Assembly: GCA_038840695.1 (NCBI GenBank)
Contig: JAWBVE010000002.1
Span: forward strand, 28,170 to 92,169
Direction of reading: 5' to 3'
Length of the DNA stretch: 64,000 nucleotides
Origin: Candidatus Pacearchaeota archaeon
GTDB lineage: Archaea > Nanobdellota > Nanobdellia > Pacearchaeales > JAPDKA01
Positions 13,646 to 40,423 of this stretch are shown one piece after another. Under the pieces are notes generated by a model, which was not told the origin of the DNA, did not search any database, and saw only the letters and a program-made list of their open reading frames with translations. The position numbers and the translations under genes are program-made. Every line of letters begins with the position of its first letter. Within the stretch, counting starts at the first letter, position 1.

Positions 13646-14101
13646 ATGGAGGAGAAAATTTTTGTTGTAAATCTTGCAAAAGGATGGAAAAAAGCGCCTT
13701 ATTGGAAAAGAGCAAAGAAAAGCATTGCATGGCTTAGAGAGTTCGTTGCAAAACAAATGAAAATTAAGGCTTCGGATGTTAAAATTGATGGCTGGCTAAA
13801 TTCTGAGATCTGGAAAAGAGGCATCTCCAATCCGCCGAGAAAAATTAGAGTTAAAGTAATAAAAGACGAAAAAGGAATTCGTGTTGAGTTATTTGAAAAG
13901 CCAAAAAAAGCAATTAAGGCTGAGAAGAAGGCTATAGAAAAGGCAAAGAAAAAAGTTGAAAAAGAAAAAAAGGAGAAAAAGGAAGAAGAAAAGGAGGAAA
14001 AAAAGGAAGCTGAAGAAAAAGCGAAAACTGAAAAGAGAGAGGAGGAAAAAATTGAGATTGAAGATGATGCTAAGGAAGCGAGGGAAAAAGTAAAAAGATG
14101 A
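13646..14101 (+). CDS. rpl31e: 50S ribosomal protein L31e with K/E-rich tail
   Basis: KRAKK...LREFV, LNSEIWKRG..NPPRKIRV motifs. Confidence 0.92.
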   Translation: MEEKIFVVNLAKGWKKAPYWKRAKKSIAWLREFVAKQMKIKASDVKIDGWLNSEIWKRGISNPPRKIRVKVIKDEKGIRVELFEKPKKAIKAEKKAIEKAKKKVEKEKKEKKEEEKEEKKEAEEKAKTEKREEEKIEIEDDAKEAREKVKR

Positions 14102-14886
14102 ATGAACAAGTAGTTGAAAAAAGCGGGATTGTTTTCTTGGATAAGCCGTATGGCATAAGTAGCCATCATGCTACTCAGCTAGTAAAAAAAATTCTCAATG
14201 CAAAAAAAGCTGGCCACACAGGAACTTTAGATGAGAAAGTGACTGGGCTATTGATTGTGCTCATAAATAAAGCAACACGGCTTGCATGGCTCTTCAATCT
14301 TGACAAAAGCTATGTCGGAGTTGCAAGGCTTCATGCTGATGTAAGCTTAAATAAGCTAAGAGCTTCTTGCAAGAGATTTATTGGCAAAATAGAGCAACTT
14401 CCGCCGCGACGTTCTGTTGTTGCAAGAAAATTGAGGCAGAGAGAGATTTATGAATTTAAAATTGTTGAAAAAGCTGGAAGAGATTTTCTTTTTAAAGTTA
14501 GGTGCCAGGCCGGTACATACATAAGAAAGCTTATTCACGATCTTGGTCAAGATCTTGGCGGGGCTCATATGCTCGAGCTAAGGCGAATTGCTATTGGGCC
14601 ATTCAAAGAAAGCTCTGCTGTTACACTTTATGAGCTAGAAAAAAATCCTAAGCTAATACCTGCAGAAAAAGTTCTGTCGAGGATTTATAAAAGCGTAGCT
14701 CTAAGCAAGGCCCAAGCAAAAAGATTTTGCAATGGTAGCTGGATTTGGCTAAATGATTTAAAAGTTAAAAATGTGAAAAGCTTAAAGGAAGGGGAGATTA
14801 TTCTTACATTTTATAAAAAAAAGTTTCTTGGAATTGGAATAGTTCAGGCTAGCCAAATCCGGCCAAAAACTATACTCTCTATCTAA
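14098..14886 (+). CDS. cbf5: Pseudouridine synthase Cbf5/TruB family
   Basis: LDKP.G.SSH, GHTGTLD, GTYIRKL.HDLG and ELRR motifs; PUA-like C-terminus. Confidence 0.9.
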   Translation: MNEQVVEKSGIVFLDKPYGISSHHATQLVKKILNAKKAGHTGTLDEKVTGLLIVLINKATRLAWLFNLDKSYVGVARLHADVSLNKLRASCKRFIGKIEQLPPRRSVVARKLRQREIYEFKIVEKAGRDFLFKVRCQAGTYIRKLIHDLGQDLGGAHMLELRRIAIGPFKESSAVTLYELEKNPKLIPAEKVLSRIYKSVALSKAQAKRFCNGSWIWLNDLKVKNVKSLKEGEIILTFYKKKFLGIGIVQASQIRPKTILSI

Positions 14887-15082
14887 TTTTTATAATCTCA
14901 TACGAGTCAGAATAAACTGCTATCTGTGCCACTGGTACTTCCTCACCTTTTAAAGGATCCTTTTTATATACTACTGGCAAGCGATTGCCCTCAATTTTTT
15001 TCAATTTTGCTTCATCCCCAAAATATTCTCTTACTATTTCTGTAAGCTTCTCTTCGAGGGAACTGAATTTTTTTCTGTCCAT
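14879..15082 (-). CDS. Small hypothetical protein
   Basis: 67-aa ORF with a TTTATAAA box about 25 nt upstream on the minus strand. Confidence 0.55.
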   Translation of the reverse strand: MDRKKFSSLEEKLTEIVREYFGDEAKLKKIEGNRLPVVYKKDPLKGEEVPVAQIAVYSDSYEIIKIR

Positions 15083-15217
15083 TAAAAAAATACGAATTTT
15101 TTGTAATTTATAAACTTTTTCAAATAAGAAAAATAATAAAAAAATAAAAAAGAAGAAAAAAAATTCTGCGAAAAACTAGTAACTTAGCCTCAACTTGATA
15201 ACTTGACAACTTGACAT

Positions 15218-15382
15218 TTACCACTCCTCATCAAAGCTTTCTTCTTCGCTCTCCTCCTCTATATCAAAATCCTCTTCCTCGTTTTCTTCTTCCTCTTCTT
15301 CCTCTTCTTCCTCGTTTTCTTCTTCAGCCTCTTCTTCTTCCCCTTCTTCCCAGATATCTTCCTCAAAATTCTTTTTTGCCAT
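15218..15382 (-). CDS. Very acidic 54-aa protein (not in ORF track)
   Basis: Manual translation MAKKNFEEDIWEEGEEEE...SFDEEW; TTTAAA box about 25 nt upstream. Confidence 0.6.
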   Translation of the reverse strand: MAKKNFEEDIWEEGEEEEAEEENEEEEEEEEEENEEEDFDIEEESEEESFDEEW

Positions 15383-15462
15383 AGCCTAACTTAAAAAAAG
15401 CCTTTTTAAACTTTACGGCAGCTTTTAACTAACTTGTTGGCTAAGTTGTTTGGGCTAGCCCT

Positions 15463-15699
15463 TTAACTTCTCTTTTCACTTTCAGGCTCTTTCTGCTCTT
15501 TTCCTATTTTAGCTTGCTTTTCTTCCTTTTCTCCTCCCAACTTTATTCCTTTCTCTTCAAAAAAGCAAGATTTGCACAACACTCTCATTCCTTCTCTTGG
15601 CTTAAACGGAACTTTTCCCGGTTTACCGCACTTCGAACAAGTTATTTTGTACATTTGCCGAGCAAATTTTTTTCCAAAACCTTTTCTTTTAGGCTCCAT
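15463..15699 (-). CDS. CxxC-x17-CxxC zinc-ribbon protein
   Basis: MYKITCSKCGKPGKVPFKPREGMRVLCKSCF. Confidence 0.85.
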   Translation of the reverse strand: MEPKRKGFGKKFARQMYKITCSKCGKPGKVPFKPREGMRVLCKSCFFEEKGIKLGGEKEEKQAKIGKEQKEPESEKRS

Positions 15700-15922
15700 A
15701 TTATTTTTCTATTATTTGTCATTTATTTGCAAAGAATTCTTCAGAAAACCCAAAGAATTCTTTTTTGTCTTTTTTATCTTTTTTTATTGCTAGTGGCTTT
15801 ATAAATCTATCTTTATAAATCTATTTATGCTTGCTTATTGCTACTTTGCTGCTCTGCCTATACTTCAAACTTTGCTTATATTTCAAAATAACATTTTTAA
15901 AAAAAGCATTTTTTTGTTATTT

Positions 15923-16495
15923 ATGAAAGAATTAATAGCTCTCTTCGATTTAGATGATACGCTTGTTGATTATGCAAAAGTTCTGCGCAAAGATTTAGAG
16001 AAAATGAGATGTCCTAGTGAGCCTAAAATTAAATATGTGCATGGCAAACTTCCACGCTATATTAAGAAAAGAATAAATTTTATCAAGAGCTCTGAGGACT
16101 GGTGGGCAAATCTCCCAAAAAGAAAGCTTGGTTGGGATATTTTGAAAGTAGTCAAAAAAATGGGATTTCGTGTGATTATTTTATCTAAGACCCCTGAAGT
16201 TGGTCCGCCGGGCTTTGGTGGTAAAAAGCGATGGATAGAAAAAAATCTAGGCAAGGAGACTGAAGTAATTTTAGCTTCAGATAAAGGACTAGTTTATGGA
16301 AAAGTATTAGTTGATGATAGCCCAATATTTATAAAAAGATGGCTTGCGCATAGGCCGCGCGGGCTTGTTATAATGCCTGCCACTTCTGAAAATAAAGGAT
16401 TTACTCATCCACAAGTGATAAGATATAATGGAAAAAATCTCGAGCAAATAAAAAAGGCTCTGAAAAAAGTTAAATTAGTTGCTTTAAAGCGATAG
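15923..16495 (+). CDS. HAD-family 5'(3')-deoxyribonucleotidase-like protein
   Basis: FDLDDTLVD motif I, KKRWIEK and DK...GKVLVDD motifs; ATG at 15923 preferred. Confidence 0.75.
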   Translation: MKELIALFDLDDTLVDYAKVLRKDLEKMRCPSEPKIKYVHGKLPRYIKKRINFIKSSEDWWANLPKRKLGWDILKVVKKMGFRVIILSKTPEVGPPGFGGKKRWIEKNLGKETEVILASDKGLVYGKVLVDDSPIFIKRWLAHRPRGLVIMPATSENKGFTHPQVIRYNGKNLEQIKKALKKVKLVALKR

Positions 16496-16519
16496 GCAAT
16501 TGCTAAGTTTTAATCTAAC

Positions 16520-17341
16520 ATGCTAGACTTTAAGCTTGCTGAATTCATTAATCAAATTAGTCCATCGATGAGCAGTGAAAGGCTAATTGAGCTAACTCTA
16601 GAATTTATTTATAAAAAATTTGGACTTGCTGGCTATAGCTTTAATTCAATGCTGAAGGGAAAAGCAACAAGCAAAAAAGCAATTTTCCTATTTAGTAATT
16701 TAATGCTTGAGTTATTCTTTAATAAAAAACCATCACACAAAGTGACTAAAGAGATTGAGCTCATTCTTGCGCTTGCAGAAAAATTTGTTGCTTATGCTGA
16801 AAGCCTTCAACGCTCGAAGAGCTTTGCAACAACAGATAGGCTGACTGGGCTTTTTAATAAGGCTTATTTTATGGGCATCTTAAAAAATATGAAAGCAAGG
16901 CGTGAGCACTTCTGCCTTGCTCTTCTCGATCTTGACAATTTTAAGCGATTTAATGATAGATTTGGTCATCAACAAGGAGATGCATTCTTGCAAGAGCTTG
17001 GCAAGATAATAAAAGAGAATCTAAAGCATGGCGAATTTGCATGTCGTTATGGTGGGGAGGAATTTTGCATAATTTTAAAAAGTAATCTAAAAGAGGCTTA
17101 TTTAAGAATTGATGCACTAAGAAAAAGGATAGCCAACATAAATGGAATTATAACTGCATCAATAGGCTTGGTTGAATCAAGTGATAGCTATGACTTTACT
17201 GAGATTGTGAGAAAAGCTGATGAATTAATGTATAGGGCAAAGAAAACTGGTAAAAATAAAGTTTGTATCGAAAGTAAGAAAGAGGGCTTTTTTTCGAGAA
17301 TAATTAGATTAATAAAAAATAAAAACTTAAAACAAACCTAA
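16520..17341 (+). CDS. GGDEF-domain diguanylate cyclase
   Basis: TDRLTGLFN, DLDNFKRFNDRFGH..GD, RYGGEEF, TASIG and AD..MY.AK..GKN motifs. Confidence 0.92.
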   Translation: MLDFKLAEFINQISPSMSSERLIELTLEFIYKKFGLAGYSFNSMLKGKATSKKAIFLFSNLMLELFFNKKPSHKVTKEIELILALAEKFVAYAESLQRSKSFATTDRLTGLFNKAYFMGILKNMKARREHFCLALLDLDNFKRFNDRFGHQQGDAFLQELGKIIKENLKHGEFACRYGGEEFCIILKSNLKEAYLRIDALRKRIANINGIITASIGLVESSDSYDFTEIVRKADELMYRAKKTGKNKVCIESKKEGFFSRIIRLIKNKNLKQT

Positions 17342-17919
17342 AAATTAAAACTTAGCTGTCTTTGTCGCTGGGCCTCTAGACTTTCTAAAATCTTATTAAT
17401 CAAATTGTAGAGATTCTTTTTTGTCTTTTCCATTTCTCCAGCTAGTAATTTGTACATTACATTATGAAGATCTTCTCTTATTCCTTTGTTGCATGTTGTT
17501 GGGCTAAATTCTGAGAATATCACACTGTATTTTGCCTCGTAAAGAATTGCCTTCTCGTGTAAAGGTAAACGACTATTCTTTGAACACTTTGGTGAGCAGA
17601 AGACATAATCAGTTGATACTCCTATATCTGCGATTGGCTTAGCCTTTCCACGGCTGCGACTACCATAGCCGCTATACCCATAGCTATACTCAACAACTAT
17701 GCTTAAATATTCTGCAGGATTGCAACAATTGGGATTTTGGCATTTTATCTTGCTTTCAAAATTATCTAAAGCATAAATTATCTTTTCCATTCGTGCCTTC
17801 CATCTATCTGGAAGATTTCCATTTTCATAAAGCCACCTAAAGCTTGGATAGTCAGTAACTGCGAGTTGCTCGAGAGATTTTCCTCGCCACTTACCAGATC
17901 TAAATTCTAAAATATCCAT
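17338..17919 (-). CDS. Hypothetical protein with N-terminal F..GKW.GK motif and Cys cluster
   Basis: 193-aa ORF; FRSGKWRGKSLEQL...SFRWL; CQNPNCC...FCSPKC. Confidence 0.6.
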   Translation of the reverse strand: MDILEFRSGKWRGKSLEQLAVTDYPSFRWLYENGNLPDRWKARMEKIIYALDNFESKIKCQNPNCCNPAEYLSIVVEYSYGYSGYGSRSRGKAKPIADIGVSTDYVFCSPKCSKNSRLPLHEKAILYEAKYSVIFSEFSPTTCNKGIREDLHNVMYKLLAGEMEKTKKNLYNLINKILESLEAQRQRQLSFNF

Positions 17920-17991
17920 AATAAAAAATAGTTTTAAGATTTATAAATTTATCTTCTTTTAAGTGGCAAAAGCGAAAGCTGCAAATAAAGG

Positions 17992-18807
17992 CTATAGCTC
18001 AAGCTCATCAAGCTTTGTTCTGACTTTTTTATAGAGCTCATCAGTAATATGAGTATAAATCTGTGTTGTATCAAGGCTTTTATGGCCAAGCAGTACTTGG
18101 ATTGTTCTTATGTCAAGGCCAGATTCAAGCAAATGGGTTGCATAGCTATGCCTAAGCTTATGAGGAGTTACTTTTTTCCTTAGCCCCAGGCTTTTTGCAA
18201 GCTTGCTTAATATTTTTTGTATATTTCTTGCTGTTAGTGGCTTTTCCTTTGAAAATACATAAGCCCAGCCCTGTCTTGCTGAAAGCCATTCCTTAAGCTC
18301 CTCTCTAAGCTTTGAGGGCAAAAAAATACGCCTTTCTTTATTCCCCTTTCCTATAATGACTGCTTCACCCTTTTCAAGATCTAGTGCAGAAGGCTTCATG
18401 TTGACAAGTTCACTAACACGCATTCCAGTATAATAAAGCATCTTAATAATTAGTGCTGACTTCTTTGTTTTTGCAGCACTAATCATTTTGCTAATTTCAT
18501 CTCTGCTTAGCACTTCTGGAAGCCTTTCTGGCTTTTTTGGCCTTGCTATATTAGCCATTAGCTCCTTGCCAACAAGTCTTGAAGCAAAACGAACTGCTGC
18601 CATTGCCAAAATCATGGATGAATTTGACTTATCAGCCATACTTGCAAGCCATGCCTTAACATCATCCTCACTTATTTGCTCTGGCTCCTTTTTGCAAAAA
18701 TCGAGCAGCTTTGAAACAAAGTAAAGATAGTTTTTTATTGTAAGCTGGCTTTTCTTCTGTAGCTTAAGCTCTGTCTCAAGCTTTCTTAGGAATTCCTCTT
18801 TTTGCAT
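17992..18807 (-). CDS. xerA: XerA-like tyrosine recombinase
   Basis: N-terminal SAM-like domain; catalytic residues intact in TGMRVSEL, GKGNKER, HKLRHSYATH, LLGH and TTQIYT. Confidence 0.9.
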   Translation of the reverse strand: MQKEEFLRKLETELKLQKKSQLTIKNYLYFVSKLLDFCKKEPEQISEDDVKAWLASMADKSNSSMILAMAAVRFASRLVGKELMANIARPKKPERLPEVLSRDEISKMISAAKTKKSALIIKMLYYTGMRVSELVNMKPSALDLEKGEAVIIGKGNKERRIFLPSKLREELKEWLSARQGWAYVFSKEKPLTARNIQKILSKLAKSLGLRKKVTPHKLRHSYATHLLESGLDIRTIQVLLGHKSLDTTQIYTHITDELYKKVRTKLDELEL

Positions 18808-18870
18808 TCAATATAAAGCGAACTCTTTTTAAATTTTTTGAAAAGCCAAAACAAACATCAAGAACTTTCA

Positions 18871-18898
18871 TGTTCGTCTAATCTTTCTTATACGAACT
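18871..18898. other. dif-like Xer recombination site (11-6-11)
   Basis: TGTTCGTCTAA-TCTTTC-TTATACGAACT: inverted arms match at 9 of 11 positions, with TAA/TTA flanking a 6-bp spacer; about 65 bp upstream of xerA. Confidence 0.7.
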
Positions 18899-19477
18899 TT
18901 TCAAGCTCTTTTTACAGCTTCTTGCGGCTTGTTTTGGTATTTGCATGCTCGTCGTGCTCTGCTTGCAAAAATTTTTCAGCAAAAATTAAAAGTTTTAGCC
19001 TCTTTTAGCGACTTTGCTTGATTTTAGCTCTGCAATATGGCACTCTTCAAGATATTTTACTTGCTTGCCAATCACAAGGCCATGCTGCCACTCACTTTTT
19101 TCCGGCTACTTTCTAGCTACTGCTAGACTTCGTTTGTAGAGCTTTAGACCTACTACCAAACTTTTATTTCCAACTTCTTAAACCTTGGATCTTTCTTAAT
19201 TTCACTCACATCTAAACCTTGCGGCGCTATCCTTGCCTTACCTTGCCTTACATTGCAAACAAGAAATGTTGAGCTAGTTAAGTCAGTCATAGGGAGTGAT
19301 GTTATAATGAATAGATTTGCTGATTATTGACAAGGCAGGATAGCTTGCCGTTTAAGTCACTAGTAAGTGATAAAAAGGCTTTTTTCTTTATGTTAAAAGT
19401 TTTAAGCAAAGATTAAAAGTTTTTGCATCAACCGAAAAATTTTTATTCTTTTAAAATGAATATAATTATGTAAGAGG

Positions 19478-20653
19478 ATGGGCTTGAATATGGAAAAAGG
19501 ACTGGAAAAAGAGCTTGATAGAAGTGAACTTGAAAAAATACTTGAAAGCTATAGAAGGCTAGGAAGTATAAATAAAACTGTAAAGGAAGTTAGACACAGT
19601 TATCATACCCTTCAGAAATATTTTAAAGATGAGCTTGAAAAAATAAGAAAAGAAAGGCAGGAGGAAAAAGAGCAAAAAATTATTAATGCTTATAAAGAGC
19701 TTGGACAGATTAAGAAAGTAGCTAAATTGCTTAAAGTAGATAGGAAAACTGTAAGGAAAGTATTAAGAAAGCATGGAATTAAGATAAAGCGTTGGAGTGG
19801 TGCGCGTTCTCTAAGTAAGGAGGAGGTTGAAAAGATAATAAAAACCTATGCTGAATTAGGGAATACTAAAAAAACTGCTAAGGCCTTAGGCCATGCTCAA
19901 ATTACTGTAGCCAAATACTGTAGAGAGCACTTTGAGTTAAACAAGATAAATAAAGTGAGAAGAAAATATGATTGGGAAAAAATAAGGGAGCTATATTATA
20001 AATATGACAGGCCTAAGGATGCTGCAAGAGAAATTGGTTGCTCACCAAAAACTGTAAGAGAAGTTTGGCACAAGTTTGGGCTACATGTACAGAGAAAAAA
20101 GCCAAAAATTAATGAAACTGAAATTTATAATATAAAGAAAAGATATTTTAATGGAGAAGGCATAGTAAATATATCGCGTGATCTAAAAAGAAGGACAGAT
20201 GTAATTATGAAGTACCTTAATTGGACTCCTTTGAGTGAAGGTTTGATCTTTTGTTTTTATGATAATGGAGATAAAGTAAAGAAAAGCATAGAAACAGTCA
20301 CAAACATAATAGAAAAATATGCTGAATGCACAGAAAAAATTTATTCGGATAGGCCTGAGTATGAAAAATATTACAAGATTGCTAACGAGATTTTTCCAGG
20401 AAAATTTAAGGAAATACTAATCATTTCATTCAAAAAAAGAAGCGATGAGGGCTTGGAGGAAAGGATTGAGAGCTATATAAAATTCAGACAATTGTGCTCA
20501 GAAGTAATCAATTTTTTTGCACGAAACAACATACAACTTGAGCTTTTTACACAGGAAATTTCTAAAGCAACTTACTATACTCTCTTTCCTGAAGCATCTA
20601 AAACCTTTTATGAATTTGATCAAAAAGGTGAAGGTGTTGAGCAGAGCATTTAA
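19478..20653 (+). CDS. Tandem multi-HTH DNA-binding protein
   Basis: About five repeats of I...Y..LG.....A..L.....TV; unassigned C-terminal domain. Confidence 0.7.
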   Translation: MGLNMEKGLEKELDRSELEKILESYRRLGSINKTVKEVRHSYHTLQKYFKDELEKIRKERQEEKEQKIINAYKELGQIKKVAKLLKVDRKTVRKVLRKHGIKIKRWSGARSLSKEEVEKIIKTYAELGNTKKTAKALGHAQITVAKYCREHFELNKINKVRRKYDWEKIRELYYKYDRPKDAAREIGCSPKTVREVWHKFGLHVQRKKPKINETEIYNIKKRYFNGEGIVNISRDLKRRTDVIMKYLNWTPLSEGLIFCFYDNGDKVKKSIETVTNIIEKYAECTEKIYSDRPEYEKYYKIANEIFPGKFKEILIISFKKRSDEGLEERIESYIKFRQLCSEVINFFARNNIQLELFTQEISKATYYTLFPEASKTFYEFDQKGEGVEQSI

Positions 20654-22787: not shown

Positions 22788-23006
22788 TAAGGGCCACTGG
22801 ACTCGGTAAAAGAGTGCCTCAAACAAATTGACCCAACTTAGCCTGTCAATTTGTTTTGAGGTTATCTCTTTTGCGCCATACTTAAGCTTAATAGGTGCAG
22901 GCTTCGTATGGTGAGTCGCAGTCCAGTCACCATACTGCTGGTGGTCACCTATCAGAGGCTGTATGGTCGCGCTCTTTTCCAGAGCACCCGATATGCCTGG
23001 CCCTTA
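22788..23006 (-). ncRNA. Unassigned structured non-coding RNA, ~220 nt
   Basis: GC-richer island; ends pair (TAAGGGCCA/TGGCCCTTA); several nested long helices; TTTAAA box about 25 nt upstream and T-run downstream on the minus strand. Confidence 0.7.
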
Positions 23007-23100
23007 TTTCTTTTAACAAAAAAGAATTTAAATCCTTTTGCAATCACTACAAAAAGACAGACTTAAAGCACCTAAAACCATGCAAAAAAAGACTAGCTAG

Positions 23101-23367
23101 CTATGCTAAACTACTTGCACTTAGCTTTTTGTATGCAAAATAGGCTTTTTCTGAGAGAGTCCATTTAATCTTTCTAGTAAAATTGCTACTTCTCTTAACA
23201 ATGGCAGCCTTTTCAAGCTCAAGAAGCAAGGCCTTGATGAATTCTTCATCTCTTGCAAGCTCTCTGGCTATTTCTGCTGTAAAAAGGGAGTGTGGAAATT
23301 TTTCAAAAAGTAAAGAAATGATTGCCTCTTTAATTTTAGTTATTTTTTCTTGGCTTATTTTAGGCAT
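23101..23367 (-). CDS. Small winged-helix DNA-binding protein
   Basis: LFTAEIARELARDEEFIKALLLELEK..IV...RKIKWTL. Confidence 0.75.
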   Translation of the reverse strand: MPKISQEKITKIKEAIISLLFEKFPHSLFTAEIARELARDEEFIKALLLELEKAAIVKRSSNFTRKIKWTLSEKAYFAYKKLSASSLA

Positions 23368-23424
23368 GAAAAATTGATATTGATCTTTTTAAAATTTTTA
23401 TTCACTTTTTCAGTTTTTTATTTT

Positions 23425-24399
23425 TCATTTTTTCTCAATAGCCATTGTGACGAGAGGGCTTCCAGGGAAAGCGATAGAGGTATCGGCAAGAGCAATGATA
23501 TAGCCTGAACACTTACTATAAAGAACTTCTTCAACATCACCCAATACATTTGTTATTTCAACGAGTGGTGTACCTTCTTTGACAAAATCGCCGGGCTTCA
23601 CAAGAAATTTTACAATTCCACTCTTATTACTACTCAGCTCTTCTAGTAGCTCTAGTCTATGCTCTGTCCTTATCTTTGTCTCAGAGCACCATTCTTCCTC
23701 AATTTCTAACATGTCAAAAGCAGCAAGCATGTTTTTAATCCCTTTAACTCCTATTCTAACAAAACTTTCATGAATTACGGTAGGACCCCCAAGCTCAACT
23801 GAAAAAGCCGGAATCTTGGCTCGATTAACAAGAGCCGCTGTTAAGCTTTTATCAAGTAAGTATTTTGTATAGCCAGGCACTTCTATGTCATAAACAACTG
23901 TTACACCAAATCTTTCAGCAAGCCTCCAGCTTTTTTCAACTATTCGCCTTGCCTTTAAGCCAATGCCCAAAGCGCGATCAATTATAATATAAGGGATCGA
24001 ATTGAGTGTATCAGAATGTAAATCGATAACAAGACTTGGTTTTGTTTCAGTGATTGTCTTAAAAATCATCGCAGCTATACGCTCTGTTGTACTACCATTA
24101 AGGTCTCCAGGAAAAGCTCTATTCAAGTCATTTTCGTCATAAGGATTTTCACGCCATTTCATTTCAAAGCCAAGAGGATTAGTAATTGGGAGTGCATAAA
24201 CAGTTCCTCTCTTTAGCTTTTTGGTTTTAAATGAATTAAAAAGTCTATGAATTACTTCTATGCCAGTTACTTCATTGCCATGAATGGCTGAGGTGATCCA
24301 AATAACTGGGCCTGGCTTGCGTGCTTGTTCATATAGTAAAGGCAATCTCCGCATCGATGAATCGGCTCCTCTAAAAAGCCTAATAAATGCCTTTTTCAT
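23425..24399 (-). CDS. Succinylglutamate desuccinylase/aspartoacylase family (M14) deacylase
   Basis: HGNE, DLNRAFPG, IDLHS and VELGG motifs; C-terminal barrel-sandwich domain. Confidence 0.9.
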   Translation of the reverse strand: MKKAFIRLFRGADSSMRRLPLLYEQARKPGPVIWITSAIHGNEVTGIEVIHRLFNSFKTKKLKRGTVYALPITNPLGFEMKWRENPYDENDLNRAFPGDLNGSTTERIAAMIFKTITETKPSLVIDLHSDTLNSIPYIIIDRALGIGLKARRIVEKSWRLAERFGVTVVYDIEVPGYTKYLLDKSLTAALVNRAKIPAFSVELGGPTVIHESFVRIGVKGIKNMLAAFDMLEIEEEWCSETKIRTEHRLELLEELSSNKSGIVKFLVKPGDFVKEGTPLVEITNVLGDVEEVLYSKCSGYIIALADTSIAFPGSPLVTMAIEKK

Positions 24400-24509
24400 A
24401 GCCTCTGAAAATTTTTTTAAAATATAAATTTTTCCCTAAAATTTCTTTGTTTTTCTCTATTTTTTGAAACTTATTAAAATTTTTTAACTCTAAAGTTCTA
24501 GCTTTTTTC

Positions 24510-27188
24510 ATGCCAAACGAAAACATAAAGCTGATAGAAAAGCCGAGTAGTAAGGAAGAATTACTTAGCATATTACATCCTCTAGTTAAAGAGTGGTTTT
24601 TTTCCAGATTCAAAGAATTTAGTTTGCCTCAACTTTATGGGGTGTTGCCAATATGGAAAAGACAAAATATACTCATAAGTGCTCCGACTGGAGGCACGAA
24701 AACACTAACTGCCTTTCTTGCCATAATAAATTATCTTGTTGGCCTTGCAGAAAAACATGAGTTGGAAGATAAAATCTATGCACTCTATGTTAGTCCTCTT
24801 AGAGCCTTAAACAATGACATTCTTGTCAATCTTAAAATACCCCTCACCGAAATAGCACAGCTTGCAAGAAAAAAAGGAATTAAGCTGCAAGAAATAAGAA
24901 TTGGTTTGAGAACAAGTGATACGAGCATAGATGAAAAAGCGAAACAGCTAAAGAGGCCACCGCATATTTTAATAACAACTCCAGAGAGTCTTGCAATAAT
25001 CTTAAGTAGCAAAAGATTTATTGAAAGACTAAAAGCTGTTGAATTTGTTGTTGTAGATGAAATACATGCATTAGCAAACAAGCGAGGGGCCCATCTAAGC
25101 TTGAGCCTTGAACGGCTTAGTAATATTTCAGCAATAGAGCCTGTAAGGATTGGCCTAAGTGCAACAATAGCTCCTCTCGAGGAAGTTGCAAAGTTTTTAG
25201 TTGGCTATCACTGGAATCCTGCCAGCAATAGCTTTGAACAAAGGCCTTGCTTAATAGCTGATGCAAGATTTGCTAAGCCGATTGAAGTTAGTGTTTTAAT
25301 GCCGACAGGCTTTTTTGAAAATGCTGAAATACAAAGTACAAAGCTATATAGCTTAATGAATGAGCTCATTCAGAAGCATAGCACAACGCTTATTTTTACA
25401 AATACAAGAAGTGGAACAGAAAGGGTTATAGAGCATTTAAAAGAACGCTTTCCAAGACAATATGAAGCAATTGATGGAAGTGGTAGTAGCATTGGTGCAC
25501 ACCACTCAAGCCTTAGCAGAAGGCTTCGCTTTGAAATAGAAAAAAGGTTAAGAGAGGGAAAGTTAAAGGCGATTGTGAGCAGCACTAGCCTTGAGCTTGG
25601 CATCGACATAGGCTTTATTGATCTAGTGCTTTTGCTTGGAAGTCCGAAAAGTATTGCAAGAGCAAGTCAAAGAATCGGAAGAAGTGGTCATAAGCTTCAT
25701 GAAAAAGCTCGTGGCATTTTCTTAGTTCTTGATAGAGACGATTTGATTGAATGCAGCATAATGGCTAAAAAAATTATTGAAGGAGAAATTGATAAAGTGC
25801 AAATTCCAAAAAATTGCCTTGATGTGCTATGCCAGCATGTTTATGGAGAAGCTATAAATAAAGTATGGCACGTCGATGATTTTTATAGGCTTGTGAGGCA
25901 AAGTTATTGCTTTAATGGCCTAAGCAAAGAACAGCTTCTAAATGTGATTTCATATCTTAGCGGGCAATATTTTGGTTTAGAGCAGAAAGGAATTTATGCT
26001 AAAATATGGTATGATGAAAACACAAGACAATTTGGCAGGCGTTCAAAGCTTGCAAGAATGCTTTATATGACTAATCTTGGTGTTATTCCTGAAGAAAGCT
26101 ATGTGAATGTTATCATAGCAGTGCCAAGAGAAAGAAAGGATGAAAAAATAGGGGTTATTGATGAGGCTTTCCTAGAAAGACTTAAGCCGGGCGATGTTTT
26201 TGTGCTTGGTGGAGAAAAATATATGTTCATGCATGCAAGGGGCATGAATGCCTATGTTAATGCTTCAGTAAAACAGCCTCCAACTATTCCTAGCTGGTTT
26301 AGTGAAATGCTACCTTTAAGCTTTGATTTGGCAAGAGCCATAGCACAATTTAGAGCTTTAATGGAACAAAAGCTAAGACAACTAAACAAAAAAGAAACAA
26401 AGGCATCAATAATAGAATGGATAAAAGCTTATTGTCATTGCAATGAAAATGTAGCTAGAGAAATTTATGATTATTTTTATGAGCAGTTTTGCTATGCTGA
26501 AATACCTCACTCAAGAAAACTTTTGATAGAGCTTTATAAAGCTGTAGATGGCAAAAAATATTGGATTTTTCATAGCTTATATGGCCGACGTGTTAACGAT
26601 GCATTAAGCCGAGCTCTCGCTTTTTTAACAGCAAAGCTAAGCCATCGCGATATTGAGATAGGAATAAATGATAACGGCTTTTATCTAGCTAGCTATGATC
26701 AAATCCAGGTTGAAAGAGCTCTCGAGGCTTTAATAAAAAATTGGCAAAAGCTTGAGATGATTTTAAATGAAGCTATAGAAAAAACTGAAGTCTTTAAAAG
26801 AAGATTTAGGCATAATGCTGTTAGAAGCTTTTTAATTTTAAAAAGCTATATGGGAAAAACAAAGAGTGCTGGAAAACTACAACTTCAATCTGACATGCTT
26901 TACAGCTCTGTAAAAGCCATAAGCCCAAATTTTCCTGTAATAGCTGAAACTCGACGTGAGGTTCTTGAGGATGTTATGGATATAGCGAATGCAAAGCTTG
27001 TTCTTGAACAAATAGCAAGCAAAAAAATTGAAATAAAAAAGATAACAACAGACCTCCCAAGCCCCTTTGCCCTTAACTTAGTTGCGCAGGGCTATCTTGA
27101 TTTGTTAAAGATAGAGGACAGAATTGAATTTTTGAGAAGAATGCATGAAAAAATCTTGGAAAGAATAGAAAAGAAAAAGGGCAATTAA
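24510..27188 (+). CDS. lhr: Lhr-family ATP-dependent helicase
   Basis: APTGGTKT (variant Walker A), ITTPESL, DEIH, LSAT, SLELGIDIG, QRIGRSGH and PSPFA motifs. Confidence 0.93.
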   Translation: MPNENIKLIEKPSSKEELLSILHPLVKEWFFSRFKEFSLPQLYGVLPIWKRQNILISAPTGGTKTLTAFLAIINYLVGLAEKHELEDKIYALYVSPLRALNNDILVNLKIPLTEIAQLARKKGIKLQEIRIGLRTSDTSIDEKAKQLKRPPHILITTPESLAIILSSKRFIERLKAVEFVVVDEIHALANKRGAHLSLSLERLSNISAIEPVRIGLSATIAPLEEVAKFLVGYHWNPASNSFEQRPCLIADARFAKPIEVSVLMPTGFFENAEIQSTKLYSLMNELIQKHSTTLIFTNTRSGTERVIEHLKERFPRQYEAIDGSGSSIGAHHSSLSRRLRFEIEKRLREGKLKAIVSSTSLELGIDIGFIDLVLLLGSPKSIARASQRIGRSGHKLHEKARGIFLVLDRDDLIECSIMAKKIIEGEIDKVQIPKNCLDVLCQHVYGEAINKVWHVDDFYRLVRQSYCFNGLSKEQLLNVISYLSGQYFGLEQKGIYAKIWYDENTRQFGRRSKLARMLYMTNLGVIPEESYVNVIIAVPRERKDEKIGVIDEAFLERLKPGDVFVLGGEKYMFMHARGMNAYVNASVKQPPTIPSWFSEMLPLSFDLARAIAQFRALMEQKLRQLNKKETKASIIEWIKAYCHCNENVAREIYDYFYEQFCYAEIPHSRKLLIELYKAVDGKKYWIFHSLYGRRVNDALSRALAFLTAKLSHRDIEIGINDNGFYLASYDQIQVERALEALIKNWQKLEMILNEAIEKTEVFKRRFRHNAVRSFLILKSYMGKTKSAGKLQLQSDMLYSSVKAISPNFPVIAETRREVLEDVMDIANAKLVLEQIASKKIEIKKITTDLPSPFALNLVAQGYLDLLKIEDRIEFLRRMHEKILERIEKKKGN

Positions 27189-27259
27189 AGAATTAAAGCA
27201 ATCAAAACAATTAAAATAATCAAAAAATCAAAAATCGAACTGAAAAAAGAAAGATAAAA

Positions 27260-28267
27260 TTAAAGATTTCTAAACTCAGCTTTAGCTCCTTTACCTTCTG
27301 TCAAGTATCGATATGCTTGTAAAGCTGCTATAGCGCCTTGGCCAGCAGAGATTATTGCCTGCTTAAATGGCACATTTGTACAATCCCCAGCAGCAAAAAC
27401 GCCTTTTTGAGATGTTTGGCATAGATTATCAATAACAATTTGGCCAAGAGCATCGAGCTTAACAAAGCCTCTGAGCCATTCACTTTTCATCTCAAAGCCG
27501 AGCTCAAGGAAAAGGCCATCAACGCTTAACTTACTTTCCTTATTACTTTTAACATCTCTCACAGCAATGCTCTCAACAACATTTTTTCCCTCTATTTTAG
27601 TAATTTCACTATTCAACAAAAATTCAACATTCGCTTTTTGTTTTAATTTTTTTAAACTTGCTTCATCAGCTCTAAAGAGCTCTCGCCTATGAATTAGATA
27701 AACTTTTTTTGCTATCTGTGAAAGCTCGAGAGCAGCGTCAATAGCACTATTGCCACCACCAACAACGGCAACTACTTTATTTTTATAAAGAGGTGCATCG
27801 CAAATAATACAAGTACTAACACCTTTTCCTATAAAAGGCTCTTCGCCTATGCCAAGCTTCCTAGGACTCTTGCCAAAAGCAAGAATAATCGCTCTTGCCT
27901 TAACTTTATCGCCACTGCCACTAGCCAATTTTAATCCAAATATGTCTTTTATTTTCTCTATTCCTACAACCTCATCAAGTATAAAATCTGGGCCTAAAGA
28001 GATTACTTTATTATAGATATTTTTTATAAGTTCACTTCCTTTTATTTTCTCAAAACCGGGATAATTCTCAATTGTGCCTGCCGCATTTAATTGCCCACCA
28101 ATGTCGCTAGCAATTATAACAACTTTAAGCTCTTTTCTTCTTGCATAAATTGCTGCTGTCAGGCCTGCAATGCCCCCGCCAACAATTGCTATATCATAAA
28201 CTTGATCAACTAGGCTGCCCCTCTCCGCCTCCTTCTCCGTCTTCACCGTCTTTGCCATCTTTACCAT
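27260..28267 (-). CDS. trxB: Thioredoxin reductase
   Basis: GGGIAG, IENYPG, CIICD, GGGNSA and FAAGD motifs. Confidence 0.92.
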   Translation of the reverse strand: MVKMAKTVKTEKEAERGSLVDQVYDIAIVGGGIAGLTAAIYARRKELKVVIIASDIGGQLNAAGTIENYPGFEKIKGSELIKNIYNKVISLGPDFILDEVVGIEKIKDIFGLKLASGSGDKVKARAIILAFGKSPRKLGIGEEPFIGKGVSTCIICDAPLYKNKVVAVVGGGNSAIDAALELSQIAKKVYLIHRRELFRADEASLKKLKQKANVEFLLNSEITKIEGKNVVESIAVRDVKSNKESKLSVDGLFLELGFEMKSEWLRGFVKLDALGQIVIDNLCQTSQKGVFAAGDCTNVPFKQAIISAGQGAIAALQAYRYLTEGKGAKAEFRNL

Positions 28268-39295: not shown

Positions 39296-40423
39296 ATGGG
39301 AGAAAAAATATTCAAAAAAATTGGCAAATATCTTGTACCTTATTTAGTTGCCTCTATGATTAATGGCGCCATTGTTAGCGATACTTATGCAAAACGAGCA
39401 AAAAACACAAAATTTGCAGAACAAGTGATGAAGGAAGCTAACACTTGGTACAACTTAAATCAAGATTATGTAGAGAAGTATCGTCTAAACTCATTTTTTC
39501 CAGCCTTTAGAAGAATGGAGGAATATCGTTCTTACATAGAGCGTGCAGCAAAGGAAAGTGGTTTAGATAAGTGCATATTGATGGGGCTAATAGCTGTTGA
39601 GTCTCAAGGAATATTACGTGCAAATTCATATGCTAAAGCTGGGGGGCCTATGCAATTGTTAGTAGGTTTTGCAAGAAAGCTCCGTATACCAATGACTAAA
39701 TGGGAAGACCGTAGGTATAGTGTAGATTCAATACCCCCAGCAGCAAAAAAGTTAGCAGAGCTTATTGAGGAATATGGCTTAGTTGACGCATTAATAGCTT
39801 ATAATGCCGGGGAAGATGATGCACAAGAAGTTGATAATATTGAAAAATGGAAACACAAGCGAAAATATATCCCTCGCCAAACAAAGGATTATGTTCCGAA
39901 AGTTATGGCAGCTATAAAAGCATGCAGGATTTATGAAGAGCAACGCAACAATAGCATAGTAAAAGTAAAGCCAGGAGATAATTTATTAAAAATTGTGGAA
40001 GAATGTGAAGAGAGAGGATTCGACGTGAATTTGCGTAAAATAAAGCAAATAAATCATATAGACAATCAAAACAAAATCTATGTTGGCCAGACAATTTATT
40101 GCAGTGGTGAATATAATAAAGACATATATGCTAATGCAAGAAATTATCGTGTTGCACGGGGTGACAATCTAGAAACGATAGCAAGGAAATTTGGAGTAAG
40201 TACTTATGATATAGTGAAGTTAAATCCACAGGTGATAGATTGGTCAATGCTTAAGCCAGGAATGGTTCTGAGAGTTCCAAAACAAAGAATCCAGGAGGCA
40301 AGTCAAATAAGGAATAAGCCAAGCACCAAAACAATCAAAAAATCAGCGCTAAATCAAAACCAACCCAAAAAAATCAAAACGCCACCTAGGCAAAGGCGCA
40401 GCGCGGCCTACTACAGAAGATAA
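39296..40423 (+). CDS. Lytic transglycosylase (SLT) with two LysM domains, MltD-like
   Basis: IAVES (catalytic Glu), AGGPMQL, AYNAG and TKDYVPK motifs; LysM VKPGDNL...IYVGQTI and YRVARGDNL...LKPGMVLRVP; N-terminal hydrophobic signal. Confidence 0.9.
   Translation: MGEKIFKKIGKYLVPYLVASMINGAIVSDTYAKRAKNTKFAEQVMKEANTWYNLNQDYVEKYRLNSFFPAFRRMEEYRSYIERAAKESGLDKCILMGLIAVESQGILRANSYAKAGGPMQLLVGFARKLRIPMTKWEDRRYSVDSIPPAAKKLAELIEEYGLVDALIAYNAGEDDAQEVDNIEKWKHKRKYIPRQTKDYVPKVMAAIKACRIYEEQRNNSIVKVKPGDNLLKIVEECEERGFDVNLRKIKQINHIDNQNKIYVGQTIYCSGEYNKDIYANARNYRVARGDNLETIARKFGVSTYDIVKLNPQVIDWSMLKPGMVLRVPKQRIQEASQIRNKPSTKTIKKSALNQNQPKKIKTPPRQRRSAAYYRR

Follow-up and report, generated by a model that had tools for sequence, protein, structure and literature searches.

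Does an archaeon of the DPANN group possess a working diguanylate cyclase of its own? The question is raised by an open reading frame (ORF) at positions 16520 to 17341 of a 64,000-nucleotide stretch of a Candidatus Pacearchaeota archaeon genome (GenBank assembly GCA_038840695.1, contig JAWBVE010000002.1, positions 28,170 to 92,169 of the forward strand), hereafter called the window. Cyclic di-guanosine monophosphate (c-di-GMP), the product expected of such an enzyme, was treated as a bacterial messenger until 2026. Sequence comparisons and predicted structures suggest, with a probability of about 0.7, that the gene encodes a soluble, stalk-dimerized diguanylate cyclase that has no inhibitory site (I-site), would be insensitive to its product and is resident in this DPANN archaeon.

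A census of 2018 recorded a single archaeal GGDEF protein and warned of contamination where bacterial-type signaling genes stand on archaeal contigs (Galperin et al., 2018; PMC5847659), and a review of 2023 still reported no detection of c-di-GMP in any archaeon (PMC10249747). A report by Sidorov et al. (Mol Microbiol, September 2026; PMC13725321) describes 20 GGDEF proteins from archaeal contigs, mainly of DPANN archaea, most of which conserve GG(D/E)EF. Archaeal GGDEF proteins, including some from DPANN metagenome-assembled genomes (MAGs), had cyclase activity in bacterial reporter assays, and DPANN proteins were active in a riboswitch reporter (PMC13725321). A sequence-only reading of the window had held that c-di-GMP signaling is not well established in archaea; that statement is out of date, and the present cyclase joins a kind of archaeal GGDEF protein that has been in print since 2026 (PMC13725321). 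No paper was found in a literature search on Pacearchaeota together with c-di-GMP.

The cyclase gene, its active site and its predicted fold

The gene and the parts of its product are as follows.

16520..17341, + strand: GGDEF diguanylate cyclase gene, 273 aa including the stop codon (ORF call, Pfam, TIGR00254, AlphaFold2 model)
16520..16717, + strand: N-terminal helical module, residues 1-66, lineage-specific (model helices 4-12, 19-33 and 52-66)
16736..16831, + strand: long stalk helix, residues 73-104, which runs into the GGDEF domain (AlphaFold2 model, fold matches)
16826..17269, + strand: GGDEF catalytic domain, residues 103-250 (Pfam 103-247; predicted local distance difference test, pLDDT, 96-98)
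17024..17035, + strand: KHGE at the position of the RxxD inhibitory site (translation; alignment to solved cyclases)
17051..17065, + strand: GGEEF active-site motif, residues 178-182 (translation; invariant in the orthogroup)
17288..17329, + strand: C-terminal amphipathic helix, residues 257-270 (AlphaFold2 model)

The sequence-only reading described an intact cyclase-type gene with a complete GGEEF motif, and profile searches bore this out. The ORF product matched Pfam GGDEF (PF00990) with an E of 4.5e-36 and 124.5 bits (cut-off 23.8) over residues 103-247, which span the whole profile (positions 1-161 of 161), and matched TIGR00254 with 2.1e-38 and 131.7 bits (cut-off 37.4); both scores place the GGDEF match far beyond chance. 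The motif RYGGEEF occupies residues 176-182, and window positions 17024-17065 translate to KHGEFACRYGGEEF. Only five database proteins (P0002-P0006) were related over the full length, at 60 to 36% identity, and the remaining matches covered the GGDEF domain alone.

In an alignment of 46 sequences, D137, D139, N145, G153, R176, G179, E181, K241 and G244 were invariant and D146, H150, D154, G178 and E180 nearly so. The metal- and GTP-binding residues named by the sequence-only reading are thus present, with metal-, phosphate- and guanine-binding roles that we take to be those of the PleD and WspR residues. The GD motif carries Asp (D154) rather than Ser, and Asp marks GTP-specific enzymes where Ser marks variants that make cyclic GMP-AMP (PMC13725321). 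The active-site positions were invariant across the orthogroup although overall identity is merely 36-60%, which points to selection on catalysis.

Membership of the I-site subclass was judged by an RxxD motif five residues before GG(D/E)EF. Here K169-H-G-E172 aligned residue for residue with RDGD of SadC (4wxo) and RQSD of 3ign in a HMMER alignment, which upheld the earlier view that RxxD is replaced by KHGE. No R..D occurred in any orthogroup member, the position reading KHGE, GHGE, VPGE, GYGE or PINA; in contrast, RxxD was present in 24 of 38 aligned GGDEF ORFs from related genomes. With its I-site absent, the enzyme should escape product shut-off, and product insensitivity is a fair inference from the sequence.

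The AlphaFold2 model of the cyclase, made from the 46-row alignment, had a pLDDT of 89.5 and a predicted template-modeling score of 0.76. Its best Foldseek match in the PDB was the coiled coil plus GGDEF domain of DgcB (6ttr; E 2.9e-15, template-modeling (TM) score 0.85 on the target), and SiaD (7e6g), a GCN4-WspR fusion (3i5c), PadC-type cyclases, PleD and WspR came next. Altogether 129 PDB chains matched at E up to 0.001, the best of those listed being diguanylate cyclases. As in DgcB, WspR (3bre, 3i5c), SadC, SiaD and PleD (2wb4), a long helix leads straight into a canonical GGDEF domain, and because of this stalk helix and the likeness to coiled-coil cyclases the protein is predicted to be a dimer. 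The RYGGEEF motif is likewise that of coiled-coil and stalk cyclases, and SadC was matched by sequence at 8.3e-24, although identity to the solved coiled-coil and stalk cyclases was 23-34%, and SadC and 3ign differ in having RxxD. Where bacterial stalk cyclases have REC, transmembrane or other known inputs, this protein has a 66-residue helical module found in few proteins. The C-terminal helix is short, basic and amphipathic (GFFSRIIRLIKNK...), and an F-[LF]-x-[RK]-[LI]-like tail was common to six of seven orthogroup rows; that the helix serves as a membrane tether is only a guess.

An archaeal gene and its neighbors

The source assembly comprises 644,521 bases in 10 contigs, is 84.8% complete and has a contamination estimate of 0.86%. 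The cyclase gene lies inside a contig of 103,959 bases (C2), and an Rfam scan located an archaeal 16S-tRNA-23S operon on the same contig at about 23000-27470 (L146, 3201-7669), just before the window start, so that archaeal small- and large-subunit rRNA genes stand 17-21 kb upstream of the cyclase gene. Archaeal RNase P and signal recognition particle RNAs were found on other contigs of the assembly. The 5S rRNA was located not on C2 but on another contig (L137). The window encodes eRF1, L31e, S19e, S24e, Cdc6/Orc1, both PolD subunits, Rpb7 and RpoL, and archaeal informational genes flank the cyclase on both sides. The GC content of the cyclase gene (0.331, z -0.70) and its GC content at third codon positions (0.281, z -0.24) were ordinary in comparison with 32 window ORFs.

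The immediate surroundings of the gene hold the following features.

15463..15699, - strand: treble-clef zinc-finger gene that points away from the cyclase promoter region (zf_Tbcl_2, 6e-14)
15797..15824, + strand: two tandem copies of CTTTATAAATCTAT, a putative TATA-box-like promoter motif that also precedes the cyclase gene of the sister species
15923..16495, + strand: NT5C-like gene of the HAD superfamily, 190 aa if the likely true start is used (longest ORF from 15827)
17338..17919, - strand: convergent Cys-rich gene, 193 aa, whose stop overlaps the cyclase stop
17992..18807, - strand: Xer-type tyrosine recombinase (Phage_integrase 1.1e-44 plus a SAM-like N-terminal domain; 58% identity at the same position in the sister species)

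A second species of the genus (G001, with proteins labeled Candidatus Pacearchaeota archaeon at NCBI) contains the same locus on a 486-kb contig of an independently assembled genome. Fifteen of its ORFs were colinear with the window between 8 and 24 kb, in the order Cbf5, zinc-finger gene, cyclase (54% identity), convergent Cys-rich gene (49%) and Xer-type recombinase. The zinc-finger homologue (L015, 6664-6930, - strand), whose likeness was judged by eye, lies directly upstream of the sister cyclase. The Cys-rich gene adjoins the cyclase in G001, but not in G003, another relative; its product had no Pfam, NCBIfam or PADLOC match, and a protein atlas returned only clusters labeled hypothetical.

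Because archaeal rRNA genes share the contig, archaeal genes flank the locus, the order is kept in G001 and the GC content is ordinary, the cyclase is a genuine resident archaeal gene, and both contamination and recent import are very unlikely. The archaeal host was thus confirmed, and the gene is not the contaminant sequence that the sequence-only reading had allowed for. A bacterial contaminant or a chimeric contig in the MAG is a concern of the kind raised by Galperin et al. (2018; PMC5847659), and a fragmented, incomplete assembly invites it. Against it stand the placement of the gene well inside an rRNA-bearing contig with archaeal flanks, the independent sister contig, the ordinary composition and the presence of GGDEF genes in 38-46% of sampled related genomes, and we regard the chance of such an artifact as vanishingly small. 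The sequence words of a 5-kb stretch (window 14000-19000) occurred in eight sequencing runs from two studies labeled hot springs metagenome, and two of these runs may be where the DNA came from.

Recent import of a bacterial cyclase on a mobile element or island is suggested by the tyrosine recombinase 650 bp downstream, by a gene of multiple helix-turn-helix units at 19478-20653 and by the matches outside the orthogroup, which cover only the GGDEF domain at no more than about 40% identity and, where named among the matches listed, come from bacteria such as Omnitrophota. Related loci listed by a search of genome contigs were likewise distant, mostly bacterial GGDEF loci, which were of no use for synteny. 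In G001, however, the same housekeeping genes enclose the recombinase, the Cys-rich gene and the cyclase at the same places, so that the recombinase is a resident Xer-type gene and does not signal an island; the reading of the locus as a mobile island was rejected on this ground. Only the HAD-like and helix-turn-helix genes are strain-specific, the composition of the cyclase gene is unremarkable, the 7 kb on either side of it are free of tRNA genes, and any transfer from bacteria would be old. Such an import is therefore very improbable.

A role in signaling against viruses, as a component resembling Cas10 or CBASS, was considered as well, since GGDEF domains share ancestry with the palm of Cas10 and weak Cas10 matches were obtained (Pfam 0.0033, PADLOC 9.2e-05). 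Any GGDEF domain gives such weak matches, though; none of seven neighborhood proteins scanned with PADLOC matched a defense system as a set, no CRISPR or effector genes lie beside the cyclase, and synteny among housekeeping genes is unlike a defense island. We consider this role scarcely credible, and the locus was rejected as a defense system because PADLOC yielded merely the weak Cas10-palm match.

The upstream gene had been called a HAD nucleotidase, possibly co-transcribed with the cyclase. A DxDxT motif is present at its likely true start (15923; MKELIALFDLDDT...). Its NT5C match (E 0.002-0.003; 0.0021) fell below the cut-off and leaves the label weak. The ORF ends at 16495 and the cyclase begins at 16520, which agrees with the 24-bp gap given before. 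No counterpart of the HAD-like gene was found at the G001 locus. Of 41 related genomes just 3 yielded the gene, and outside this strain it never adjoins a GGDEF gene. The tandem copies of the 14-mer were the only two matches in the window at up to one mismatch, and both stand upstream of the HAD-like ORF; in G001, CCTTTATAAATCTAT lies about 35 bp before the cyclase start, with the zinc-finger gene diverging from there, and the intergenic regions of the window and G001 aligned at 76% column identity. The 14-mer tandem probably acts as a promoter, and the simplest reading of the alignment is that about 0.7 kb with the HAD-like gene was inserted, in this strain, between the ancestral promoter and the cyclase. 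With the insertion lying downstream of the old promoter, co-transcription of the two genes is plausible in this strain, although the link is not conserved; a functional pairing of the HAD-like protein with the cyclase was rejected because the genes are not kept together. The tandem 14-mer stands at the left edge of the HAD insert and exists as one copy in G001, and may be an insertion scar.

Other features of the stretch and its assembly were recorded. The product of 19478-20653 (+ strand) is a 391-aa protein of repeated helix-turn-helix units with a PADLOC match to mad1 (1.4e-9); with no counterpart in the otherwise colinear G001 locus, the gene is probably strain-specific and perhaps of mobile or viral origin. 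The gene at 39296-40423 (+ strand) codes for an SLT lytic transglycosylase that carries two LysM domains, so that this archaeon encodes an enzyme which cuts murein. Such an enzyme fits a lifestyle that touches bacterial walls, and nothing else that was noticed has a possible bearing on a bacterial partner; action of the cyclase on such a partner, which the sequence-only reading had offered as one option, is unsupported. Two tRNA matches of 109 and 143 bases (L150, 16584-16692; L143, 14993-15135) are probably intron-bearing.

Candidate partners and the weighing of activity

The sequence-only reading proposed a search of the genome for EAL, HD-GYP, PilZ and MshEN domains. That search returned no EAL, PilZ or MshEN protein and no HD_5 protein at the Pfam threshold; it did return one divergent HD-GYP-like protein. 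The genome contains two GGDEF genes, and the second of them and the HD-GYP-like gene are the candidate partners.

C4:36348-37385 (L001, 1438-2475), - strand: second GGDEF gene, 345 aa, a KGDEF paralogue that adjoins RadA
C3:48833-49639 (L131, 1321-2133; L132, 1498-2310), - strand: sole HD-domain protein of the genome, 269 aa, divergent HD-GYP-like

The paralogue reads RTTD...RRYKGDEF, its RxxD-like site lying one residue farther from the motif than is canonical, and its syntenic orthologue in G001 (72% identity) reads RSID...RRYRGDEF. Since the rest of its catalytic residues are intact, it may have remained an enzyme. Its sequence would suit either an unusual cyclase or a protein that binds c-di-GMP.

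The HD-domain protein encoded on contig C3 matched the generic HD profile with 26.4 bits (cut-off 22) and aligned with HD-GYP proteins of the order through H...HDLGK...H...HHQ...CYP...ADTYDAM. A HMMER search of 1.84 billion representatives gave 111 matches. An alignment of 53 rows (51 of the shorter matches, P0129 and the query) had H79, H111, D112, G114, K115, H135, H173, H174, D206 and Y217 invariant, and 49 of its rows matched HD_5. The model had a pLDDT of 90.3, and its eight best PDB matches, DvhD, PA4781 and PmGH, were all HD-GYP c-di-GMP phosphodiesterases (E 1.5e-4 to 8.2e-4), with PgpH and Bd1817 next. The protein thus resembles PmGH (4mcw), PA4781 (4r8z) and DvhD (9rbz) in its invariant His and Asp metal ligands and in fold, and differs from them in scoring below the HD_5 cut-off, in its HHQ and CYP and in an insert. 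Used as a query, it was found in G001 (49% identity) and in none of the other 39 relatives save for a weak match to an HD_5 protein of G035; the match to the order's best HD_5 protein was weak (2.4e-7), and no PDB entry was matched by sequence at E up to 1. On these grounds of sequence and model it is a reasonable candidate phosphodiesterase.

How likely is it, then, that the cyclase makes c-di-GMP? The cyclase fold might instead serve as a nucleotide-binding scaffold, or produce another cyclic dinucleotide or linear pppGpG. Several archaeal GGDEF phenotypes were independent of the catalytic motif and none was consistent in all assays (PMC13725321), the genome yielded no classical receptor or riboswitch, and the cyclase gene evolves fast. 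On the other side, the protein retains every conserved active-site position, GGEEF and the GD-motif Asp among them, these positions are invariant across an orthogroup of 36-60% identity, and both species of the genus also possess a candidate degrading enzyme of HD-GYP type. We therefore judge a protein that makes no c-di-GMP to be unlikely.

Other observations also weigh against an active cyclase with the architecture and partners proposed here. None of seven archaeal MAG proteins was consistent across three assays, and the riboswitch assay was positive for just three of the seven (PMC13725321), so that an intact motif does not guarantee activity. The module that would bring the domains together is modeled with low confidence (pLDDT 53-68 for residues 41-70), and residues 1-66 had no Pfam match and have no known ligand. 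Identity of the cyclase in the two species of this genus is only 54%, against 57-92% for its neighbors. No output was recognized: EAL, PilZ and MshEN domains were not found in the 84.8%-complete genome, nor was a c-di-GMP riboswitch found in its 10 contigs at Rfam gathering scores. The candidate phosphodiesterase has HHQ...CYP where HD-GYP has HHE...GYP, with a three-residue insert, and HD_5 (PF13487) matched it over the first half only (E 0.0077, 16.4 bits, cut-off 27.2), the whole-genome search giving no HD_5 protein at threshold. Its fold matches were modest (E 1.5e-4, TM 0.5-0.7), and it may hydrolyze another substrate.

On balance we retain the product-insensitive, stalk-dimerized cyclase as the preferred reading. 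The analysis shows the gene with its motifs and fold, the archaeal setting, the synteny and the distribution; activity, dimerization, product insensitivity, co-transcription and the partners are what we infer. The N-terminal helical module and the stalk helix would hold two GGDEF domains together. Each domain would bind GTP-Mg, and the pair would condense two GTP into c-di-GMP by the mechanism of the family. An enzyme with no RxxD I-site would not be shut off by its product, and the c-di-GMP level would then be set by expression, by effectors of the N-terminal module and by degradation. Transcription in this strain would probably start from the ancestral promoter together with the inserted HAD-like gene. 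The KGDEF paralogue would be the best candidate for binding or for a second cyclase component, and the HD-GYP-like protein the best candidate phosphodiesterase. The target of c-di-GMP would be internal; the genome search turned up no classical receptor.

GGDEF domains in relatives and implications

The 41 genomes of the order, this one included, contained GGDEF in 22 cases, with up to four genes per genome. A larger sample of the order had GGDEF in 153 of 401 genomes (37 of 86 of high quality; 66 of 153 genera). In a phylum sample GGDEF was found at E up to 1e-10 in 184 of 401 genomes and 149 of 281 genera; this tally includes four genomes marked unpublished (G707, G768, G636 and G637), all positive, and is otherwise 180 of 397. 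Nearly all genomes of the phylum sample are of high quality and every listed row comes from one class. These domain counts are descriptive, related genomes not being independent. HD_5 exceeded its cut-off in 13 of the 41 order genomes, none of them in this family, and in 48 of 301 genomes of the phylum sample. EAL and PilZ were found above cut-off in none of the 41, and in 5 and 4 of the 301, respectively. By hand count, 28 of the 48 HD_5-positive phylum genomes were also GGDEF-positive, on the assumption that the smaller sample lies within the larger. One 632-aa frame on contig C3 of genome G440 had both GGDEF and HD_5.

In that genome, of the same class, a GGDEF domain is followed directly by an HD_5 (HD-GYP) domain (G440:C3:44413-45384). 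A fusion of this kind has been reported for Methanocella arvoryzae.

The 41-genome set held 40 GGDEF places, of which 38 were aligned, two having given no usable ORF. They fell into five groups.

This orthogroup: 3 ORFs, GGEEF, no RxxD
GAF-GGDEF proteins: 6 ORFs, GGEEF, no RxxD
KGDEF/RGDEF pair: 2 ORFs, KGDEF or RGDEF, RxxD-like
Short GGDEF-only proteins: 22 ORFs, GG[ED]E[FL] (20 GGEEF, one GGDEF, one GGEEL), RxxD present
Degenerate proteins with an insert: 5 ORFs, SAGDEF, no RxxD

The GAF-GGDEF proteins (340-347 aa; for example in G013, G039, G035, G006, G023 and G002) resemble the cyclase of the window in having GGEEF without RxxD, within the motif context ACRYGGEEF. Unlike it, they have a GAF sensor; they group in a supported clade of their own and are not syntenic with it.

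The degenerate SAGDEF proteins are about 212 aa long, have a 10-17-residue insert before the motif and are without the GD guanine-binding motif. Five genomes, all from a single family of the order, encode them (L033, 1308-1952; L039, 11510-12148; L041, 1273-1908; L042, 1321-2046; L043, 1269-1913), and in G039, G006 and G013 the gene lies within 5-10 kb of a GAF-GGDEF gene.

The phylogeny that the sequence-only reading had called for was built as a quick maximum-likelihood tree of the domain with 88 rows: 33 ORFs of the order, P0002-P0006 and 50 other database matches, most of which are unnamed metagenome proteins and not proven bacterial. Even-numbered matches, those past the first 50 and the five SAGDEF rows were left out. 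The cyclase orthogroup was a supported clade, with a Shimodaira-Hasegawa-like approximate likelihood ratio test (SH-aLRT) value of 99. The GGDEF domains of the order formed at least four supported clades, in which the groups listed above stayed separate; the backbone was unresolved, and the tree cannot tell an old bacterial transfer from vertical descent.

How does this locus compare with the archaeal cyclases in print? By description, not by sequence comparison, it is like those of Sidorov et al. (PMC13725321) in its GG(D/E)EF, its archaeal-flanked contig, a fold nearest to active bacterial cyclases and the GD-motif Asp. That report calls archaeal occurrence sporadic and notes that turnover proteins are seemingly not multi-copy per chromosome (PMC13725321), whereas here GGDEF occurs in 38-46% of sampled related genomes, two GGDEF genes accompany an HD-GYP-like gene, and relatives have up to four GGDEF genes. 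The matters it leaves open are frequency, phosphodiesterases, receptors and origin (PMC13725321). What the present analysis adds to the printed record, namely the frequency of the domain in the phylum, the near-absence of known receptors and a candidate module of three genes, is circumstantial.

These observations permit a broader but doubtful reading, in which c-di-GMP signaling is widespread and vertically kept in the phylum with mostly unknown receptors, and in which this genus has a three-gene system of an I-site-less cyclase, a KGDEF sensor or effector and an HD-CYP phosphodiesterase. We hold it at low odds; at the level of the phylum it rests on GGDEF in about four of ten sampled genomes, HD-GYP in about one of six, and PilZ and EAL in one to two of a hundred. 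The surrounding searches suggest that GGDEF is common in the phylum, that HD-GYP is its usual partner and that known receptors are nearly missing. The locus itself is a clean, contamination-proof archaeal example on an rRNA-bearing contig. With two GGDEF genes and one HD-GYP-like gene in a 0.64-Mb genome, about 700 proteins make a small search space for a first archaeal receptor. If the three-gene system is real, it might control how the archaeon attaches to its host cell or detaches from it.

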